DNA of 64,000 nucleotides from Patescibacteria group bacterium (GCA_023473585.1 JAMCYU010000001.1:66507-130506), one strand, 5' to 3'. Counted from the first letter of the stretch, positions 6,463 through 63,527 are shown. A program made the numbers and translations. The notes: generated by a model from the sequence alone, not told the origin.

Positions 6463-7437
6463 TTATCTTCGGAGCTTTCTGGAGAAAAAACCCTTGATAA
6501 ACAAAAGACCATAGGTAAAATGGGTCACAAAAATTGAAAGGCCAACCAAAATCCCCAGTTTCAAATTTTTTTCCAAAAGGGAAATCTTAAAAGAAGTTAT
6601 CAAAAGAAGCAAGAAATAAAAGGACAAGGTCAGCAAATAAAAAGGCCAAAGCGGTCTTAGGATAAAAGAAACAGGTATCCCCCCAATAAGTCCCAAAGCA
6701 AAAAGGGTCGGCAGAAGATAACCCAAGCGGAAAGAGGTTTTAGGCAATGTTTTGGCAAAGTATCCTCGATGGACGGCATAGCGGCTGATTTGTTCAAGAT
6801 GTGCTCTAAAAACCGCGCGCCGATGATGATAAACTAAAATACGAGGGTCATAAATGATTTTTTTGTTTAATTTATAAACCAAATCATAACATAATTTTGT
6901 GTCCTCCCCCGGCCAGAAATGGGAATCAAAACCGCCGATTTTCACAAAATCTTCTTTGCGAACTAAGAAATTAACCGTCGGATAGTCATTAACTTCACGC
7001 CTTTTACTTACAAGACAACGATATGTCCCTGCTCCACCACTGCCTAACCAACTAGACCAGACATATCCCGAAGCTTTTTGGAATAAATTATCAGAAGGAG
7101 GAGTTACAGTCGGACCGCAAAGCCCCGCTATTCCTTTATTATTTTTGAATAACTCCAGGGCATTTTTTAGCCAGTTTTGGTCCGGATAAGAATCATCGTC
7201 TAAAAAGGCCAAAATCTCACCCTTGGCTCTTTTCGCTCCCAAATCTCGTTTATCGGCCGGTCCGCTTTTTTTTGCGTCTACTAAAATCGTCGTTTTGGGA
7301 AATTTTTCCAAAGACTCTTTATCGACGACAATCAGTAATTCAAAATCTTTTTCTGTTTGAGATAAAATTGCCGGAATTGTCTCTTGACGAAGAAAGTCAT
7401 TAATTTCTTTAACCGGAATAATAATTGAGGCTTTCAT
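6463..7437 (-). CDS. Glycosyltransferase family 2 with C-terminal TM region
   Basis: ASIIIPVKE...LLIVVDKES and AFLDDDSYPD motifs; stop codon back-to-back with stop of 4681-6462 (taatta). Confidence 0.65.
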   Translation of the reverse strand: MKASIIIPVKEINDFLRQETIPAILSQTEKDFELLIVVDKESLEKFPKTTILVDAKKSGPADKRDLGAKRAKGEILAFLDDDSYPDQNWLKNALELFKNNKGIAGLCGPTVTPPSDNLFQKASGYVWSSWLGSGGAGTYRCLVSKRREVNDYPTVNFLVRKEDFVKIGGFDSHFWPGEDTKLCYDLVYKLNKKIIYDPRILVYHHRRAVFRAHLEQISRYAVHRGYFAKTLPKTSFRLGYLLPTLFALGLIGGIPVSFILRPLWPFYLLTLSFYFLLLLITSFKISLLEKNLKLGILVGLSIFVTHFTYGLLFIKGFFSRKLRR

Positions 7438-7450
7438 TTTGAGTAAAGCG

Positions 7451-7486
7451 AAAAAAGTAGCCCTGCCCTAGGCGGGGCGTCTTTTT
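7451..7486 (-). terminator. Rho-independent terminator candidate (GC-rich hairpin GCCCTGCC-cta-GGCGGGGC with U-runs on both strands)
   Basis: Only GC-rich hairpin in an AT-rich 49-nt gap between two minus genes; 7/8 bp stem, 3-nt loop, flanked by A6 (7451-7456) and T5 (7482-7486). Confidence 0.45.
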
Positions 7487-8359
7487 CTAGCCAATATTGA
7501 CCCGATAATCTAAATCTTTATCATAGCGCCATTTGCGCTTATTGGAATTATCGTAATAATGAAGAATTTTAAGCCGATAAAAAACCGCCGCCGTATCCCA
7601 AAGAGTACTAAAAATTGCCCTTAAAATTGACTGGGAAACAATACTTCCTTCCAGATTCCAGACAAGACGAATGGGCGCCTCAAAAATTCTTTTATAACCC
7701 AATCTGTGAGCTACCGCTAAAATCTCAATGTCAAAAGCGTACGTTTTGACGATAAGACGCGGCAAGACATTTTCCAAAACTTCCCTCTTGAAGAATTTTA
7801 TACCTGCTTGAGTATCACGGACATTTAATCCGAAAAGAATTCTCACCATCATTTGATAAACCCGACTGATAATCTTTCTTTGCCAAGGATAATCTATTTG
7901 AGAAGCAGGGTGACGTTTCGAACCAACAATGATGTCTGCGTTGTACCATTCAAAATGTTCCAAAAGCATGGAGAGACCATTAGGATCTAAATCCATGCCT
8001 GCGTCAATAAAAGCTACGATGTCTCCTTTGGTTCTGGCCATACCGAATCTGACAGCGTAACCTTTTCCATGATTAGTCTCGTAGCCAACAACCTTGATTT
8101 TTTTATCTTCGATTTTTTTAGCCCGGCTAAAGGTTTTATCGTCTTTCCCATCGACAACCACAATAATTTCATAATCATATCTGATTTTTTTAAGAACAGC
8201 GTTTATTTTTTTAACGTCTTTAACAATGATTTTTTCTTGGTGATAAGTAGGAATTACGACAGATAAGAAGCGGTGATTAATGTTTTTCATTTCGAAGGTA
8301 ATATAACAGAAGCGTAAATAATAGTAAAGTCGCTTGATGCTTATGTTCTTTTTGACCAC
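7487..8359 (-). CDS. GT2, polyprenyl-phosphate sugar synthase-like (DPM1/GtrB-like)
   Basis: LSVVIPTYHQE...YEIIVVVDGKDDKT...VAFIDAGMDLDP; DPM1-like spacing. Confidence 0.6.
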   Translation of the reverse strand: MVKKNISIKRLYYYLRFCYITFEMKNINHRFLSVVIPTYHQEKIIVKDVKKINAVLKKIRYDYEIIVVVDGKDDKTFSRAKKIEDKKIKVVGYETNHGKGYAVRFGMARTKGDIVAFIDAGMDLDPNGLSMLLEHFEWYNADIIVGSKRHPASQIDYPWQRKIISRVYQMMVRILFGLNVRDTQAGIKFFKREVLENVLPRLIVKTYAFDIEILAVAHRLGYKRIFEAPIRLVWNLEGSIVSQSILRAIFSTLWDTAAVFYRLKILHYYDNSNKRKWRYDKDLDYRVNIG

Positions 8360-55174: not shown

Positions 55175-55966
55175 TTAGTGTCTGGAAATGACTTCAACCA
55201 AATCAATTCTTTCTTGCTGAAGATAATCATTTTTAACCCATGAAAGGTCTAATTCAACTTTCTTAACGACCTCTTTTCCGGGTTCTGACTGGTAGATGAC
55301 TTCACCAAGCGGCGAAACTACCAGGGAGGGTTGTGTTTGAGGCACCTCGGCATTATTAACACTACAAACAAAATATTGATTTTCAAAAGCTCTGGATATT
55401 ACCAAATGACTTTTGAGAGAATCTCCGGGTTTAATGGCATTATTAAGATGAAAAACTACTTGTGCGTCTTGTTTTTTTAAATATTTCCACTGCTCGGGAA
55501 AAACAAGTTCTCTGCACATTTGTATACCGAATCTGACGCCATTTTCTTCATAAACTTCTAATTTATTCCCTTGCTTAAAATGTTTTCTGTCTAAAGTAGC
55601 CAGATTATTCTTAAAATAATATTTTGTTCCTGATTTGCTAACAATAACCGTGGCATTATACCAATCATTAGTGAATTTATAAGCAGTCCCAAAAAGACAG
55701 AGACAATTTTTTTCTTTAACAACAGCTTCTATTTTTAAAATCCCCTCTTTTATCTCTTTAAAATTAAGCTGTCCCGGGTAATTATCGTCTTCTGGATAGT
55801 AACCAGACAACATGCCTTCAGGAAAAACTATCCATTCATTTTTTTCTGAACCATAAATGATTTTTAAAATTTTATTAAGATTATGGGCTATTTTTCTTGT
55901 TACTATAAGCTGAGCAATTTTAACTATCATTAACTGAATTATAGCAAAAGGCTTTATCTTTCCCAA
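55175..55966 (-). CDS. Carbon-nitrogen hydrolase (nitrilase superfamily) protein
   Basis: E-K-C triad context: WIVFPEGMLSGY (Glu), LDRKHF (Lys), GIQMCRELVFPE (Cys); 9-nt gap after adhesin gene. Confidence 0.5.
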   Translation of the reverse strand: MGKIKPFAIIQLMIVKIAQLIVTRKIAHNLNKILKIIYGSEKNEWIVFPEGMLSGYYPEDDNYPGQLNFKEIKEGILKIEAVVKEKNCLCLFGTAYKFTNDWYNATVIVSKSGTKYYFKNNLATLDRKHFKQGNKLEVYEENGVRFGIQMCRELVFPEQWKYLKKQDAQVVFHLNNAIKPGDSLKSHLVISRAFENQYFVCSVNNAEVPQTQPSLVVSPLGEVIYQSEPGKEVVKKVELDLSWVKNDYLQQERIDLVEVISRH

Positions 55967-55975
55967 AGAAGAGCA

Positions 55976-58900
55976 TTACGAAGAGCGGCGGGAGAAAAAG
56001 TAGAAAGCTAAAGCTAAAAGTCCTAATCCGCCCAGAACCCAAATTAACTTACTGCCTCCGCCTAAAATACCGTTCGTGGCGCCGGTATTCGTCCCCGACG
56101 ATGGCTGTGTCCCCGCTTGAGGCTCTGCTCCGGCCGCTGGACTGCCTTCGGTTCCTTGTCCGAGCACTTCTCCGCCGGCCACACCACCGGCCACCGGTAA
56201 GGGCTGGGTCTCTCCGGCTGATTGGGTTCCCGGCGAGGGTGAAACTTCAACATAAGTTATTGAGCCGCCGTCGCCGACTAAATCTGAAGCATTCCCGGCT
56301 TTATCAATGGCGCGAAGAGCATAATAGGTTTCTCCACTCCAGGGAATACTATTATCAAGGTAATTTATGTCTTCGTTCGGCACTCCGCCTCGTTCTCCAA
56401 TTTTCGTTCCGTTGTCCGCTGTAAAGTCACGCTTGTCAGAACGGTAGATAAAAACTTTATAAAAATCGCTACTGTCCGGATTTTTCCAGAATATTTTAAA
56501 GGCGTTGGCCCCGGCTCTGTCTTTACGGTAATTAGTGGGTGTTTTGGGATTGTTCCAATCAACCGTTGTTGAAGTTTCGCTTGATGCTGATTCTCCTCCG
56601 CCGGTCGCCGCCACTTTAAAATAATATTTTCCCTGCTCATTGACGATCGCGGTGGTTGTTTCGATTGAACCGGTTTCGCCGTTTAATAAACTCCCGAAAG
56701 CCAGTTCCGGACCACCCTCTTTATGATAATAAAATTGGGCCTGAATCGGCTCGCCCTTAGTTTGCAGCGCCGTATAGGAAAGTTTAAAAACCGGGGTGTT
56801 TTTATATTCGGGTAAAGTGGTGATTTGCACGGTCAAATTAGCGGCTTGAGCCGGTTTCGCGTAAGTTAAACCGAAAAGCAACGGTGCGACCAAAATCATC
56901 ATCTTGATTAATTTTCTTAATTTACCCAGGTTTTTCAAAGCCAAGCCCAGGAAAATCATTAAAATAGCTAAGATCAACCAGCCTGTTTCCGCTCCGGTCG
57001 CGGCGCCTAAAACTTTTCCTGTTTCAGTTGAGGCTCCCAAAACTTGCTGGATTGTTCCGCCAATACCGGCGGAAAGACTGACTCCGGGTATTAAGTTAAC
57101 CCAAGACCAAGCCGGATCAGTATAAGTTTTGTAATTATCCGCAGCATTTAAAACCCGATTATTACCCCAGGCCAGAGCGACATTAGGATATTTGCCTTCC
57201 TGTAAACTGCTGTCTGTTTTGGCTTGATAAGTGATCGTCACAATCGCATCCGGATTAAGATTTCCCAAACTCCAAACAATATTTTGACCGGTAACTGTCG
57301 GTTCAGAAGCGCCAGTCGTACTGCTTGCCACATAACCAAACCCAATCGGTAAAGTATCCCGAACCGAAACATCTCTAGCGATAATTTTTGAAGTATTGGT
57401 TACGGTTAAAGTATAAGTTACGGTTCCTCCCGGACCCATTGAACCAAGAATATTATTAATTTTACTTAAGGTCAAAGTTATTGGCTGAAGTTCGTTACCA
57501 AAATTCGTGCAAAAAGGCTGTCGAACGAGATTAGTTACGAATTCGCCACCACGTGGCTGACCGTTACATTCCTCACCACCGTAAGAAGACCCGGAATTAA
57601 TCGTCAAATCGTAGTAATTCGGATCAACCGGCCAAGTTTGATCCCAACCCGGTTGAGCGGTTTCGGTCAGACGATAATTACCAGCTCTTAATCCGGTAAA
57701 TTCAAAGTAACCATTATCATTTGTCTGCACACAATTACCATTATCCTGCTCGGTAAACCTAAAGGTCGGTTCTTCACTCGGGCTTAAACAAATTTCCCAA
57801 CCACTTAAGGCCGGTTCTCCTTCATCCCAAAAACCATTACCATTATAATCATCCCACTTCCAGCCACTAACTTCTCCTAACTTGAAGTTGCCAAAATTCA
57901 TATCAGTTGTTTCTTGACCGGGATTAACGACAACCGTCTGACAATCGGAATCTGTCGGTTGAGTTCTTTGCCAACCTTTTTGAGATTCTTCACAAACCTG
58001 ATAAGTTCCGGAAATAACGTTTTCAAAGGTGTAAGTTCCGCTTTCCGTCGCTGTTGTCGTCGTTCTCAAAATCGTGCCTTCGATATCCTTTAATTGAATT
58101 GTCCATTCCGATAACCCTCCTTCATTTTCTTCTCTAGAACCATTAACATTAATATCCTCGTATTTCAAACCGGAAATCGAACCGTAATGAAGATTGCCGA
58201 AATTTTTACCGGTGTTATCTCTGTCTCCGGAATGATTAATAATCGCTTTCCGGCATCTTGGAGCTTCATCGGTTGCTCGCGACTGATTGGCAAAACCCTC
58301 TTTTCCTCGAGGATCAGTCTGAATCCACCCTGATGGTAAAACTTCACAAAGGTAATATGTTCCCAAAGACAAACCATCAGCGCGATACTGACCGGTGATT
58401 CCGGTGTGTCCAGTTATTAATTCATCAACTTTATTCCAACCCTCTTCTGCCGCTTTGTAAACTCTGATTGTCCATTGATCTAAATAAGGCTCTCCCGCGT
58501 TATATTTACTATTATCATTTAAATCTTCATATTTTTTGCCTTGGATCATTCCTAATCTGAAATTACCAAACTTAATGATTTTTTCCTCTCCCAAGGTCAA
58601 ATCAACGTTCTGGCAAAGATCGGTCGTGTTCGTCCAACCCTCCGTTAAGTTTTCTTCTCTAACTGAATATTCTCCCGGAACCAAATTGGGAAAAACCGCA
58701 TTCCCGTTTTGGTCGGTGTCCTCCGTTCCTTCCCCAATCATTTGACCTCCACAGTCGAAACCCTCGTAAACTCCCATTTCCCAACCAGCTAAACCACGAT
58801 CATTACCGTTTTCCAAACCATCCTGATTATTATCTTCAAATTTATGAGCCGTAATTTGACCTAACTTGGTATTGATAAAAGTACAGGTGCCTCCGTCTTC

Positions 58901-61900
58901 GGTAACGGTCAAAGTCGCGGATCGGTCTTCGGTATTTAAATCACTGCATAATCCGGCCACTGATTCGGCTTGATAGGTTAAATCATTTTCCGAACTTTCC
59001 CTCACCCTATAAGTGCCAACCGGAATAACGGCGTCCTGACCGGTAATAAAAGATCCATCAATTCCGTCTATAGCAAATGACCAAGAGTTAGGTGAAGCGT
59101 CTCCTTGAGAAACGACTTTTTCAAAGGTAACTCTTCCGTAAGTTGTGGCCGGAGCATTCCCAAAATCTTTACCGGTTGCGTTTGATCCTTGAGTTATTGT
59201 CCAGTAACCGTCAGGCATTGGATAAGTTTGGGTGTAGCCGTTTTGCGTTACCTCACCGATAATGACATTGCCAGAAATGTTGGGCAAAGAAAACGTATAA
59301 TTACCGGAATCATCAGTTAACGTCTGGGTAATTACTTTATAGATCTCAACATGCAAAGCTCCCGTATCGTTGCTTGGGTAAAAATCACTGATTTGAAATT
59401 TAAGAGCCGCGCCGCTACCGGTTACCATCTGCCAATAAACATGGCTTGCATTGTACGCTCCCCAATTCGGCGAAGTTCCGTCGATCTGCAAATCAAGCAG
59501 GGTTGGCCCGTAACTTTCGTAATGCTGAACATAATCCGTCCAACCGGTATTGGGCGCGCGTTTGGAATATTTGGCGTCGGCCGTAATCCCATCACCCGCG
59601 TCATAGGTGTTGGAAACCCTAATGGCATAAGCGATCCCGCTATTTAATACAGGCGAAGTAACTTCAGGCGTATTTAAAGCCTGGACATCGCTTTCCCATG
59701 CTTTCTGTCCGACAAAAATCGTCCAATCCGAAAGACCCGATTCTCCTTCATCTTTAATTCCATCCCCATTTAAATCATTGAATTTCACCCCAGTGATTTT
59801 CTTATTAAGCGGATCGTTTTCAAAATTATAAGTTTCCTGTCTATTTACTTGATAAACACCACCTTCTGGGGCAACTTGAATCCACCCTGGACGAGAACCT
59901 TCAGCAACATAAATTCCATCATTAACTACCTCACAAATCCTTCCAAATTCATAACCACCTTCTTCATCGGTCGGGGTCTTGGAAATAATTCTGTAGATGT
60001 TAACCGTTAATGAACCAGAATTGTCCCCATACCCGCTGTCCCAAATGCTAAAGTTGGCCGGTGAACCACTGCCGGTATAAATTGTTGAGTAACGATGAGT
60101 GGGATTATATTCGCCCCAATCAATGTTTGAACCACTGATTAAGACATCTAAGGCATTCGTCCAGACTGGTGGAAAAACATCCTCTCCTTTTTTCCATCCC
60201 GGCCCATAACTCCAATCTGGTCTATCTGAATATTCAGCATCGGCTTGGCCAGAACTTCCACCGGCTCCTGGAGTAATATAAGTATAAGTTCCCGAAACTT
60301 CTACATAATAATCTTCACTATTGTTAAGGGAAACCGAAGAAGGATAACTGTTACCATTAGGCAAAACATTAACAGTGTCAATTTTTTCCAGAAGATAAAT
60401 TGGCCAATCTTCGACTCCTTCTTCGGTGTCAGCATTTATTTTCCGCCCGGAAATTTCACCACACCACTTACATTCGTATCCCAAAGCTTCTACCCAGTTA
60501 ACGGCAATTTGACCCCATGTTTGACATCCTGACCAAATCGTGTTGGTAGCATGAAGTCGAACATTTATATCACCAGTTAAATTAGGAACTGCAACCTCAA
60601 TCGTGTTCCAAAGCTCGGTACTATCTAAAACATCAGTGTAGTGAGCCGTTAAAACTCCATTGACATAAACATCATAATCATCAAAATTTGAAAGACCATC
60701 TAAAGCCCGAATTTTGAGTTTATTAACATATTTGTTACCCGCATGAATGACAAAAGAGGCATCTCTTTCTACTTCACTTCCACCACATTCAGTATTTCCT
60801 ACAATTAAGCCGAAAGCAGGAACGGGCGTTCCGTCTCGCCCGCCATAATTCCCCGTCCCCGGATCAGCTCCCCAACCGGAAGCATTATGAGCAATTTCAC
60901 TGTCACTATTCCCCAAATCAATAGAATCTACCAGTCCATCATTAGTTGGCTCACCAACCTCACAAATACCACTTTGTTCGATTAGCTCACAGGAAGAATT
61001 GCAAAGAAATCCTTCTTGCCCATTATTCGCCTGCCCATAGTCACATTTCTCGCTTGACTGATTAACAATTCCGTCTCCACAATAAGGACGAGTACAATCA
61101 TATCCGGAAACTTCTGCCCAGTTAACTGTCACTTGTCCCCAACCGTTACATCCTCCCCAGGCCGGATCGGTTGACTTCAGTGTCACCATCACTGGACCCT
61201 CTAACCCATTTCCGGAAGGACCAGGCACTGGAAATATCTGTGTTCCCCAAATCTCTCCACCTTGACCGTTATCTTTATAATGCGCCAGGAAATTCCCATT
61301 GACTAAAACATCAAAACCGTCTGTTCCGCTAATACCATCAAGCGCTCTAATACTCAATGAAGTAATATATTTACCAGTTTGCCCTATGGTAAATCCTGCC
61401 GTTGCCGAAGTTGGACTAATACATTCATCGCTTCCTGGACCAACTACCATCCCGACCCATTCATGACCATCCCATCCTCCATAGGTAGAATCTGAAGGAT
61501 TTCCGTTCGCTGGTCGCCAACCATTCCTATTAAACGGATCACCATTATTTCCGTCAATATCAATCTTTTGAGAAAAGGTTTGAATTTGGGATTGATTTGG
61601 ACAAGAAGAAGTTGCGTTGTTCCACGTACACGAAGTGGAACAAGAAGTTGTAGAACCGTTATTTTGCCCGAAATCACACTGTTCACCTGAGTCTAAAATT
61701 CCATTACCGCAGAGTTGTTGATCTGGATCAACTTGATAATTATCTTTTTTGTTCTCAAAATCAACGCCATATTCGCCACAGTCGTTATTGGCAACTGTGT
61801 AAGCGTCAAAACAAAAGCCGCCATTTATATCTGTTTGACGAGATCCTGAAGCTACGATTTGATTCGGATCACAAGAAGCTCCCTCTGGTTTACCTTCAAT

Positions 61901-62875
61901 ATTCCAATCGTAGGAAGTATTCGGGTTGAAACCACTACCGTTGATATAAACATGATGACCTTTGGGATAATGATTTATATCTTGCTGGTCTGTTCCACAA
62001 CTTCCATCTGTGGTCCAAATTGACCCACTACCTCCATTTACCGACGTATCAGCATCAGTAAATGTCGTTGCGGCGACAATTCTATCACCATCTTTGATTT
62101 CGGCTTTATAATTCGGCCTGTAGGTTCCGTCTAATTGGTAAGAATAGAAAAGATTACCTTTATCATCTGCTGTCACTTTGGTTTCGAAATTAACCGAAGG
62201 CAAGTCTTGGGAAGTAATAATTAAGGTGTAGCCTTTATTTGGCATAAAGCCCGTGCCGGTGATTAAAACCGTATCCGTCGGCGCGTAGTCGAGTTTGTCG
62301 GTGACAATTTTGGCGCTGCCTTCGGTTTGGAAATCTAAGTCGAGTTTGTCAATCGAGGCGGCCTTGGTATCTTCTAAAATAATCGCTGCTAAATGGCCGT
62401 TTTCTTTTGGTTCCGGAGTAGTTGTGGGTTCGGGCGAAGTTGTGGCTTGGGTTTGATCGCCGTTAACTTGGGGCGTGCTGCTTGCGGTTTCTTCTGGTGG
62501 CGCCTGCGGTTGATTGGCAGGAGAAGTCGTTTCCGGTTTTGGAGCTTCTGAAGGCTGCGGACTATTCGTCAGTTCCGGTGTCACGCTTGGTTTAACCGTT
62601 ATCTCCGGCGTCGGACTCACGTTCGGGGTTGGACTTACTTTTGGAGTAATTTCCGGTTCGGGAGAAGAAGTTATCGCTGGTGTCTCTGTTGGTATTGGTG
62701 TTGGTTCAGCCGTAACGGTCGGTTCCGGTGTCGGCGTTGCCCCTTGAGAATAAACCGGCTGATATAAAAAAATGCCGCTGGAAATTTGGAAAATTAAAGA
62801 AAAAATAGAAAAAACGGAGAAAATCCTTTGCAGTTTTTTAAGTTTCCTTTGACTTAGGTTAAGAAAACTGACCAT
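55976..62875 (-). CDS. Giant (about 2300 aa) multi-domain cell-surface adhesin-like protein, probable sortase substrate
   Basis: Signal peptide; Pro/Thr/Glu-rich linker; 2 Myxococcus-type Cys-rich repeats (CGNGILDSGEQCDFG, CGDGIVNQSSEKCDYG); duplicated about 170-aa modules ending WGQ(V/I)xVNW(A/V)E(V/A)xGY(D/E)C; 5 SdrD-B/CnaB-like repeats (DxNxDGxxDxGExGLxxW(T/E)I); DUF11-like domain; Fn3-like domain; two TM-plus-basic sorting-signal-like segments; track start TTG 62932 rejected in favour of ATG 62875. Confidence 0.7.
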   Translation of the reverse strand: MVSFLNLSQRKLKKLQRIFSVFSIFSLIFQISSGIFLYQPVYSQGATPTPEPTVTAEPTPIPTETPAITSSPEPEITPKVSPTPNVSPTPEITVKPSVTPELTNSPQPSEAPKPETTSPANQPQAPPEETASSTPQVNGDQTQATTSPEPTTTPEPKENGHLAAIILEDTKAASIDKLDLDFQTEGSAKIVTDKLDYAPTDTVLITGTGFMPNKGYTLIITSQDLPSVNFETKVTADDKGNLFYSYQLDGTYRPNYKAEIKDGDRIVAATTFTDADTSVNGGSGSIWTTDGSCGTDQQDINHYPKGHHVYINGSGFNPNTSYDWNIEGKPEGASCDPNQIVASGSRQTDINGGFCFDAYTVANNDCGEYGVDFENKKDNYQVDPDQQLCGNGILDSGEQCDFGQNNGSTTSCSTSCTWNNATSSCPNQSQIQTFSQKIDIDGNNGDPFNRNGWRPANGNPSDSTYGGWDGHEWVGMVVGPGSDECISPTSATAGFTIGQTGKYITSLSIRALDGISGTDGFDVLVNGNFLAHYKDNGQGGEIWGTQIFPVPGPSGNGLEGPVMVTLKSTDPAWGGCNGWGQVTVNWAEVSGYDCTRPYCGDGIVNQSSEKCDYGQANNGQEGFLCNSSCELIEQSGICEVGEPTNDGLVDSIDLGNSDSEIAHNASGWGADPGTGNYGGRDGTPVPAFGLIVGNTECGGSEVERDASFVIHAGNKYVNKLKIRALDGLSNFDDYDVYVNGVLTAHYTDVLDSTELWNTIEVAVPNLTGDINVRLHATNTIWSGCQTWGQIAVNWVEALGYECKWCGEISGRKINADTEEGVEDWPIYLLEKIDTVNVLPNGNSYPSSVSLNNSEDYYVEVSGTYTYITPGAGGSSGQADAEYSDRPDWSYGPGWKKGEDVFPPVWTNALDVLISGSNIDWGEYNPTHRYSTIYTGSGSPANFSIWDSGYGDNSGSLTVNIYRIISKTPTDEEGGYEFGRICEVVNDGIYVAEGSRPGWIQVAPEGGVYQVNRQETYNFENDPLNKKITGVKFNDLNGDGIKDEGESGLSDWTIFVGQKAWESDVQALNTPEVTSPVLNSGIAYAIRVSNTYDAGDGITADAKYSKRAPNTGWTDYVQHYESYGPTLLDLQIDGTSPNWGAYNASHVYWQMVTGSGAALKFQISDFYPSNDTGALHVEIYKVITQTLTDDSGNYTFSLPNISGNVIIGEVTQNGYTQTYPMPDGYWTITQGSNATGKDFGNAPATTYGRVTFEKVVSQGDASPNSWSFAIDGIDGSFITGQDAVIPVGTYRVRESSENDLTYQAESVAGLCSDLNTEDRSATLTVTEDGGTCTFINTKLGQITAHKFEDNNQDGLENGNDRGLAGWEMGVYEGFDCGGQMIGEGTEDTDQNGNAVFPNLVPGEYSVREENLTEGWTNTTDLCQNVDLTLGEEKIIKFGNFRLGMIQGKKYEDLNDNSKYNAGEPYLDQWTIRVYKAAEEGWNKVDELITGHTGITGQYRADGLSLGTYYLCEVLPSGWIQTDPRGKEGFANQSRATDEAPRCRKAIINHSGDRDNTGKNFGNLHYGSISGLKYEDINVNGSREENEGGLSEWTIQLKDIEGTILRTTTTATESGTYTFENVISGTYQVCEESQKGWQRTQPTDSDCQTVVVNPGQETTDMNFGNFKLGEVSGWKWDDYNGNGFWDEGEPALSGWEICLSPSEEPTFRFTEQDNGNCVQTNDNGYFEFTGLRAGNYRLTETAQPGWDQTWPVDPNYYDLTINSGSSYGGEECNGQPRGGEFVTNLVRQPFCTNFGNELQPITLTLSKINNILGSMGPGGTVTYTLTVTNTSKIIARDVSVRDTLPIGFGYVASSTTGASEPTVTGQNIVWSLGNLNPDAIVTITYQAKTDSSLQEGKYPNVALAWGNNRVLNAADNYKTYTDPAWSWVNLIPGVSLSAGIGGTIQQVLGASTETGKVLGAATGAETGWLILAILMIFLGLALKNLGKLRKLIKMMILVAPLLFGLTYAKPAQAANLTVQITTLPEYKNTPVFKLSYTALQTKGEPIQAQFYYHKEGGPELAFGSLLNGETGSIETTTAIVNEQGKYYFKVAATGGGESASSETSTTVDWNNPKTPTNYRKDRAGANAFKIFWKNPDSSDFYKVFIYRSDKRDFTADNGTKIGERGGVPNEDINYLDNSIPWSGETYYALRAIDKAGNASDLVGDGGSITYVEVSPSPGTQSAGETQPLPVAGGVAGGEVLGQGTEGSPAAGAEPQAGTQPSSGTNTGATNGILGGGSKLIWVLGGLGLLALAFYFFSRRSS

Positions 62876-62903: not shown

Positions 62904-62932
62904 ATTATATAATTAAAAATACGGGTTGTCAA
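62904..62932 (-). promoter_or_regulatory. Consensus sigma70-type promoter for the adhesin gene (TTGACA-17-TATAAT)
   Basis: Minus strand TTGACA at 62932-62927, exactly 17-nt spacer, TATAAT at 62909-62904, 28 nt to ATG 62875 with AGAAGA SD-like element. Confidence 0.5.
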
Positions 62933-62939
62933 GACTGCC

Positions 62940-63527
62940 TCATTTTTTGGCCAAAACCAAAAGACGATAAAGAGTGGTTCCGGCTGGATAACAGGTTTGC
63001 AAAGTTAAAGTTTCTCCCTGAAGATTTTGTAATGTTTCGGCGACTTTATCGGGACTGACAATTTTTTTATCGGTTACCCTATAGGCGTATTTAAGAGAAT
63101 TATAGTAAACGATAATCTCGTCATTTTTTTCCAGTTTGGAGATGAGATAAAAAACGGCGTTATAACGACTGACGTTTAAGGGCGTATCGCTTGAATGGCC
63201 GAAAATAAAAACATTACCCGTCTCATTTGGCAGGATGCTTCCCTTAGCGTGAGCCACGCCTTTGGTTAAAATCGGTAAATATTCCTGAGGGTTGTTCGCA
63301 TCAACGTTGCTAAAAACTTTCACATTGAGTTCCAGCTTAGGGATAACCAAACCGAATTCTTCGGAAACCGGGGTTATTGTTTTGGGAATGGTTAATTCTT
63401 TGCCTCTTTTATTTTCCAGGTTTCGGTAGCGGATTTCCTCATTGACAATCGGCCAATAAACTAAAGCCAAAATAAGAAGACCTCCGCCAAGCAAAATCAG
63501 CCAGACATAATTTAAAACCTTAGTCAT
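62940..63527 (-). CDS. Sortase family transpeptidase (membrane-anchored)
   Basis: N-terminal TM anchor; IFGHS (His), LTLQTCYP (TLxTC catalytic Cys), LYRLLV (Arg) in canonical order and spacing. Confidence 0.7.
   Translation of the reverse strand: MTKVLNYVWLILLGGGLLILALVYWPIVNEEIRYRNLENKRGKELTIPKTITPVSEEFGLVIPKLELNVKVFSNVDANNPQEYLPILTKGVAHAKGSILPNETGNVFIFGHSSDTPLNVSRYNAVFYLISKLEKNDEIIVYYNSLKYAYRVTDKKIVSPDKVAETLQNLQGETLTLQTCYPAGTTLYRLLVLAKK

Follow-up and report, generated by a model that had tools for sequence, protein, structure and literature searches.

The sortase-dependent LPXTG adhesins and pilins of Gram-positive bacteria (SpaA, SdrD, CLIPPER) carry a signal peptide, tandem SpaA, SdrD_B and DUF11 domains and a sorting signal made of a motif, a hydrophobic helix and a basic tail, and a sortase gene lies next to theirs. 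Internal signal peptides are a feature of viral polyproteins such as flavivirus prM-E, in which they stand behind a transmembrane (TM) anchor and are cleaved by signal peptidase of the host. Among bacteria, Thony-Meyer and colleagues are said to have described in 1991 that FbcH of Bradyrhizobium japonicum, a cytochrome b-c1 precursor, is cleaved where a membrane segment is followed by an internal signal peptide; the fused gene reportedly gives two mature proteins, and other bacteria are said to keep the two genes separate. In the bunyavirus Gn/Gc polyprotein (PMC7926653), a stop-transfer helix is followed by a short cytoplasmic loop, an internal signal peptide with a small-x-small site and the next ectodomain, and one precursor yields several membrane-anchored ectodomains after cutting by host signal peptidase. 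Here we analyze a locus that shares the layout of domains and sorting signal with the adhesins on the one hand and the order of helix, loop and signal peptide with the viral precursor on the other. It lies in a 64,000-nucleotide stretch of DNA (the window; GCA_023473585.1, JAMCYU010000001.1:66507-130506, positions counted from its first letter) from a Microgenomates-type Patescibacteria bacterium, where a single giant open reading frame (ORF) joins two genes: the first encodes a giant isopeptide-domain adhesin (module 1) and the second a small membrane-anchored tandem-Fn3 protein (module 2).

An inherited in-frame fusion

The giant ORF lies on the minus strand, as do all the features of the window located below. 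Read from a TTG at 62932 it extends to 55976 and comprises 2318 codons without an in-frame stop, while from the ATG at 62875 used in the NCBI annotation it covers 55976-62875 and encodes 2299 residues. The NCBI entry is MCL5095216.1, from a Patescibacteria metagenome-assembled genome (MAG). Residue numbers follow the 2318 numbering unless the 2299-residue form is named. With the slash marking the predicted signal peptidase site, the junction between the modules reads ...VLGAATGAETG-WLILAILMIFLGLAL-KNLGKLRKLIK-MM-ILVAPLLFGLTYAKPAQA/ANLTV and is passed without a stop; residues 1975-2035 resolve into LGAATG-AETG-WLILAILMIFLGLAL-KNLGKLRKLIK-MM-ILVAPLLFGLTY-AKPAQA/ANLTV. The sortase-motif-like hexapeptide LGAATG (L1975-G1980; 56993-57010), at whose aligned position relatives show LPATG or LPAAG, is followed four residues further on, from W1985, by hydrophobic helix 1 (WLILAILMIFLGLAL; 56936-56980), the stop-transfer part of the sorting signal. 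Then comes the basic loop KNLGKLRKLIK (charge +5; 56903-56935), which has two roles, as charged tail for the sorting signal and as n-region for the internal signal peptide. The latter (56843-56902), recognized by sequence reading and by its conservation in homologs, has the h-region MMILVAPLLFGLTY and the c-region AKPAQA. Cleavage by signal peptidase I is predicted after A2030, between nucleotides 56843 and 56842, within the stretch LFGLTYAKPAQAANLTV, and would give module 2 the new N-terminus ANLTVQITTLPEYK (ANLTVQ). An earlier note on this DNA had described a helix with a basic tail running through Met-Met into a signal peptide in one uninterrupted frame. That description holds, and the two Met codons (M2011/M2012) are exactly where it had placed them, at 56897-56902.

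Both signals stand in unusual places. The sorting signal, which is C-terminal in split orthologs, is followed here by 308 further in-frame residues, and the signal peptide is preceded by 2010 in-frame codons and is therefore not at the protein N-terminus, although its basic n-region, hydrophobic h-region and small-x-small c-region are all present (KNLGKLRKLIK, MMILVAPLLFGLTY and AKPAQA/A). Since the same anatomy recurs in homologs it is not due to chance. The junction may be read as a two-helix membrane hairpin, in which helix 1 and the loop would act as a stop-transfer sorting signal and the loop, helix 2 and AQA as an internal Sec signal peptide. Two other ways of reading the junction were considered and rejected: an alternative genetic code, as the junction contains no in-frame stop whichever code is applied, and programmed frameshifting, as the TGA TGA found in the +1 frame over the MM codons is absent in the ortholog L025 described below. 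This TGA TGA could be the relic of an ATGA overlap.

The same in-frame junction is found in other assemblies. Three other sequences in the 90%-identity cluster of MCL5095216.1 span it, all in the same frame: a partial protein from a second NCBI MAG (P0021), a protein of 2318 residues from a Logan assembly (P0023) and one of 408 residues from ENA (P0024). The ENA contig L003, from sample ERZ27237563, is 97% identical to the window at the DNA level overall, with many synonymous differences, and its junction DNA is identical; the h-region of its signal peptide differs at four residues and AQA is kept. An exact search of JGI metagenome contigs with 30 nucleotides of the junction gave no match. More distant evidence comes from an ortholog (P0026) on a 788-kb contig (L025), where the genes are ordered as in the window, from TsaD and sortase through the giant gene to S8 protease, CAP and NTP-transferase. 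Module 2 of this ortholog is intact and has 84% amino acid identity to that of the window, and its junction is in frame but has a different sequence, in which IF replaces MM and TTA replaces the TTG at L1999. There is no ATG, GTG or TTG in L025 between helix 1 and the predicted cleavage site, which indicates that module 2 is made there only as part of the long precursor; L006 likewise has no such codon in frame. The in-frame fusion of two neighbouring genes is thus genuine and inherited, and is not a sequencing error.

We also observed that L003 has a TAA at positions 82-84 (window 57224-57226, Q1903) where the window has CAA. This codon falls within the DUF11 domain, some 80 codons ahead of helix 1, and the gene caller had split the ORF there.

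The two genes are separate in related genomes. The nearest stand-alone module-2 proteins (P0005 in L001 and P0012 in L002) are encoded directly after a gene of about 1890 codons, whose product contains SpaA, SdrD_B and CLIPPER domains and can be aligned to the window's module 1 as far as, and including, the sorting signal. In the closest split relatives (L001, P0003, P0005) an adhesin of 1889 residues that ends in ...VLGAATGSETYWLVLAIAMIIGGFLLINRKRFIK is followed by a separate module-2 gene of 313 codons, and in L001 the TGA of the adhesin overlaps the ATG of module 2 (ATGA). The adhesin of L002 ends in ...ELPATGSATW...KNKNEEN and the overlap is 14 nucleotides. Altogether, split orthologs of the locus (L001, L002, L004, L007, L008, L011, L012 and L015-L017) share with the window the synteny of sortase, giant adhesin, module 2, CAP and NTP-transferase as well as the sorting signal, the signal peptide and the tandem Fn3 domains. 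They differ from it in having two ORFs in different frames, with a stop located 1 nucleotide before the ATG or overlapping it by 4-14 nucleotides, and a module 2 with its own Met-Lys-Lys n-region. The comparison of orthologs for a stop at the junction, which the earlier note had proposed, thus finds an adhesin stop that overlaps or abuts the module-2 ATG. As for the suggestion that two adjacent sortase-substrate genes had been joined, two genes for secreted proteins have indeed been joined in frame, but only module 1 carries a sortase-type signal.

Among GTDB species representatives we found 14 clear relatives (Woesebacteria, Shapirobacteria and Microgenomatus), of which 9 are split and 5 fused. 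In eight of the nine split loci the upstream protein ends with LPATG, LPDTG or LPAAG followed by a helix and a basic tail, and the adhesin stop lies within -1 to +14 nucleotides of the module-2 ATG; the ninth has no upstream sequence. With such distances a single-base indel interconverts the split and fused states. Searching 1.84 billion cluster representatives with a module-2 profile gave 365 matches at E<=1e-30, and the best 150 of these were classified: 58 are fused, being proteins of 400-2650 residues that end in a complete module 2 together with its signal peptide, 53 are split (about 300 residues), 31 are generic Fn3-repeat proteins and 8 are fragments. All but one of the 58 fused proteins have a loop of net positive charge (median +3) between two hydrophobic segments, and 54 have a sortase-like motif (LGAATG in 30, LPxTG in 18, LPxAG in 6). 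A small-x-small signal-peptidase site is present in 56/58 fused and 45/47 split proteins, with Ala at -1 in 53/56 and 44/45, respectively, and the median length of the uncharged h-region is 19 residues in fused and 17 in split proteins. All the stand-alone homologs have a basic n-region (MKK..) at the start of module 2. The sortase-like motif, the basic loop and the AxA site are thus conserved in fused homologs, and a continuous architecture shared by 58 of the best 150 cluster representatives does not fit a one-off loss of a stop codon. The earlier note, which had favoured loss of a stop codon, had itself named such an architecture as grounds against its reading.

A neighbour-joining tree of 97 module-2 sequences (about 190 columns) requires about 19 changes between the fused and split states (bootstrap 17-21) compared with 24-39 when labels are shuffled. 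On this tree whole fused clades exist at under 50% identity, so that the state is heritable, and it has also been switched many times. We regard the anatomy of the junction and the spread of the fusion as solid.

Proposed processing of the precursor and its alternatives

A sortase gene (62940-63527, 195 codons) lies directly upstream of the giant ORF. Its product matches the Pfam Sortase family (E=1.3e-23), has the His motif FGHSS and the Cys motif TLQTC and scores above the cut-off of NCBIfam TIGR01076, while no class-level NCBIfam model reaches its own cut-off. Sortase homologs occupy the same position in L001, L002, L006, L013 and L025, and sortase has been reported to be near-ubiquitous in Microgenomates (PMC6744442). 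The LGAATG of the junction is the only sortase-type signal in the 64-kb window, and the residues aligned with it in relatives are LPATG, LPAAG or LPDTG. LGAATG, usually within VLGAATG[SA].T, also occurs in P0001, P0002, P0004, P0006, P0007 and L001, and it is paired with an adjacent sortase in the window, in L001 and in L025. It may be a previously undescribed sortase recognition motif.

Taken together these features make it probable that the giant ORF encodes a secretory polyprotein that is cut by signal peptidase I and sortase and that derives from the inherited fusion of two genes of a sortase operon. The N-terminal signal peptide (region MVSFLNLSQRKLKKLQRIFSVFSIFSLIFQISSGIFLYQPVYSQ, 62744-62875, identified by sequence reading and aligning with the N-terminus of the split ortholog in L001) would start the export of module 1. 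Helix 1, crossing from outside to inside, would then halt the transfer and keep the Lys/Arg loop in the cytoplasm, and helix 2, crossing from inside to outside, would restart export and present AQA to signal peptidase I. Both modules would lie outside the cell, with the C-terminal helix of module 2 crossing back inwards. A cut after AQA would free module 2, which would stay tethered by its own C-terminal helix, and the adjacent sortase would cut module 1 between T and G of LGAATG and attach it to the wall. This would yield the two mature proteins that split loci also make, together with a membrane peptide of about 50 residues. Because two translationally coupled genes and the fused form would give the same products, fusion and fission would be near neutral and lineages could switch freely. 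In favour of this processing, the AxA site, the sortase-like motif and the neighbouring sortase gene are all conserved, and L025 and L006 lack internal start codons.

Could the two genes be truly separate in the organism and have been joined by a sequencing or assembly frameshift, as the earlier note had allowed? A 1-nucleotide indel near ATCAAGATGATGA would restore an ATGA-type stop/start overlap, and such an origin fits the TGA TGA that overlies the MM codons in the +1 frame. However, the junction is identical in P0021, in P0023 and in the ENA contig, which elsewhere departs from the window at about 3% of its bases, and it is in frame in L025 despite a different junction sequence, which leaves an artefact next to impossible. 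A related view would accept the fusion as a recent and mildly harmful accident, after which module 2 is not properly made and decays. The nearest split relatives (L001, P0003, P0005) do show that the fusion arose within this sub-lineage, but mature module 2 differs between the window and L003 by 14 synonymous and 6 non-synonymous changes, which puts its ratio of non-synonymous to synonymous substitution rates (dN/dS) at about 0.13. This indicates that purifying selection still acts on module 2 in the fused lineage. As module 2 is also intact in the 84%-identical L025, which has the same fusion, and as fused clades are as diverged as described above, we consider decay very improbable.

Two further explanations concern the way the precursor is handled. 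In one the fusion exists and the junction always stays intact, leaving a three-helix membrane protein whose ectodomains are joined by a permanent TM hairpin. This topology is self-consistent, with the positive loop inside, and the uncharged stretches of the h-region, with 16-20 residues, are rather long for signal peptides. Nevertheless one would not expect a signal-peptidase site to persist in a plain TM hairpin, which gives no reason why 56/58 fused proteins should, like stand-alone signal peptides, keep Ala at -1 and Val or Ala at -3 at a fixed distance of about 10 residues from the first Fn3 domain, nor why the sortase-like motif and the adjacent sortase gene should be retained; we therefore hold a permanent hairpin to be unlikely. 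In the other explanation module 2 is produced mainly by internal initiation, at ATG 2011/2012 or TTG 1999, and the in-frame read-through is incidental. A start at TTG 1999 would give a normal basic n-region, the leader is A/T-rich like those of many real starts in this genome, which rarely uses Shine-Dalgarno sequences, and L003 has an intact module 2 despite its upstream TAA. The Shine-Dalgarno duplex energy at M2011 (-0.4 kcal/mol) is uninformative because real starts of the genome have a median of only -1.1 kcal/mol. On the other hand, a Met is found near the loop in only 20/57 fused relatives, L025 and L006 lack a start codon altogether, and the product from M2011 would have no basic n-region, unlike all stand-alone homologs. 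An internal start, also put forward by the earlier note, is thus not needed, and although one could still operate in this window we judge it improbable as the main source of module 2.

Several points weigh against the polyprotein cut by signal peptidase I and sortase. We infer both cleavages from sequence conservation only; LGAATG is not a canonical LPXTG motif, and we know of no sortase that uses it; and tblastn with two signal-peptidase queries found no signal peptidase gene within the 64-kb window. The window does contain possible internal starts, namely ATG 2011/2012 and the TTG at L1999, and if the TAA of L003 is real the anchor of module 1 is lost there and module 2 would need an internal start. 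The number of switches, for its part, comes from a simple neighbour-joining tree built on a short alignment. With these points in mind, we lean slightly towards the broader view that Microgenomates-type Patescibacteria widely use such a polyprotein, in which one loop has a dual role, with about 20 switches between one and two genes and, in many cases, the undescribed sortase motif LGAATG.

Domains of the two modules and genomic context

Pfam identified four SdrD_B domains (1.4e-32, 112.7 bits) and three SpaA domains (2.6e-20, 72.8 bits) with beta-sandwich folds in module 1, upstream of a single DUF11/CLIPPER domain (PF01345, E=2e-12, 47.8 bits), all scoring above the gathering thresholds. The latter (residues 1834-1936; 57125-57433) is the last folded domain of the module. 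The N-terminal half of module 1 also contains cysteine-rich acidic repeats, which NCBIfam TIGR02232 (myxo_disulf_rpt) matches in two stretches at about 60960-61090 (residues 616-657, or 597-638 of the 2299-residue protein). These repeats flank two copies of a domain of about 150 residues ending in ...WG.V.VNW.E..GY.C. NCBIfam has no model that recognizes the sorting signal at the junction.

The structure of module 2 was predicted with AlphaFold2 for the 308 residues downstream of the junction. The model has two beta-sandwich domains (residues 24-115 and 123-210 in module-2 numbering) with a predicted local distance difference test (pLDDT) score of about 88-97. The first Fn3-like domain (56558-56833) contains a conserved LPEY motif, and the second (56273-56536) is marked by W.NP..SDF...IYRS and YYALRAIDKAGNAS; both assignments rest on AlphaFold2 and Foldseek, the second also on the alignment. 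Foldseek found tandem FnIII pairs as the best PDB matches, namely integrin beta4 (1qg3, E=9.5e-9) and RbmA of V. cholerae, while no Pfam or NCBIfam sequence model matches module 2. The two domains are followed by a disordered Gly/Pro/Thr-rich stalk of about 70 residues (56042-56245, pLDDT below 50) and by a C-terminal TM helix (WVLGGLGLLALAFYFFSR) with the short basic tail RSS (55979-56041, sequence reading and AlphaFold2). These results bear out the earlier description of an independent Fn3-like domain with its own C-terminal anchor. Sequence reading found no LPXTG-like motif beside the C-terminal helix, and module 2 is therefore TM-anchored and not a second sortase substrate.

The motif [GQ][EQ]VLG occurs twice in the giant ORF, just before the module-1 sorting motif (57026-57049; QQVLGAST, often duplicated) and in the stalk of module 2 (56153-56176; GGEVLGQG). 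It is conserved at both places across homologs, the stalk copy being seen in the module-2 alignment.

Nearly all long ORFs between 2240 and 63825 of the window are on the minus strand and their stops and starts often overlap. Shine-Dalgarno complementarity is weak at starts throughout the genome, as the median duplex energy given above illustrates. A carbon-nitrogen hydrolase gene (55175-55966) lies between the giant ORF and the S8 protease gene and is missing in the otherwise syntenic L025, where the giant gene is directly followed by those for S8 protease, CAP and NTP-transferase. Some related loci encode an archaeal/SipW-type signal peptidase I (L022:1137-1808 and L002:7930-8616; NCBIfam TIGR02228, 101 bits), and in L002 a Peptidase_M73 gene of the camelysin/TasA family (7169-7795) adjoins the adhesin and module-2 genes. 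These genes hint at a dedicated peptidase in the L022 and L002 lineages. No sortase was seen within 6 kb in L022.

Comparison with known systems

Should the proposed processing take place, the sorting signal at the C-terminus of one protein and the signal peptide at the N-terminus of another would be topologically complementary elements, which a single-base indel can join or separate, and in uncultured Patescibacteria a giant protein annotated as "hypothetical" may stand for two mature surface proteins. LGAATG would then be a candidate new recognition motif for sortase biology. The conserved pair of adhesin and Fn3 partner may act in cell-cell attachment, on which these episymbionts are thought to depend.

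Unlike in Gram-positive LPXTG adhesins and pilins, the sorting signal lies inside the protein here, its motif is LGAATG and its basic tail runs into a second signal peptide and a second protein. The literature searches that we carried out found no description of a bacterial sorting signal fused to an internal signal peptide. FbcH resembles the present precursor as a bacterial fusion with an internal signal peptide, but it reportedly differs in that its products are subunits of a respiratory complex, not surface adhesins, and in that it has no sortase signal. Unlike the viral polyproteins the system is cellular and bacterial, would operate in the context of Sec and signal peptidase I, and would have its first product additionally freed by a sortase. 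The parts themselves (a sortase sorting signal, a Sec signal peptide, an isopeptide-domain adhesin and Fn3 domains) are ordinary, but their arrangement would work like that of viral glycoprotein polyproteins, of which, if processed as proposed, it would be a natural and widespread bacterial counterpart.

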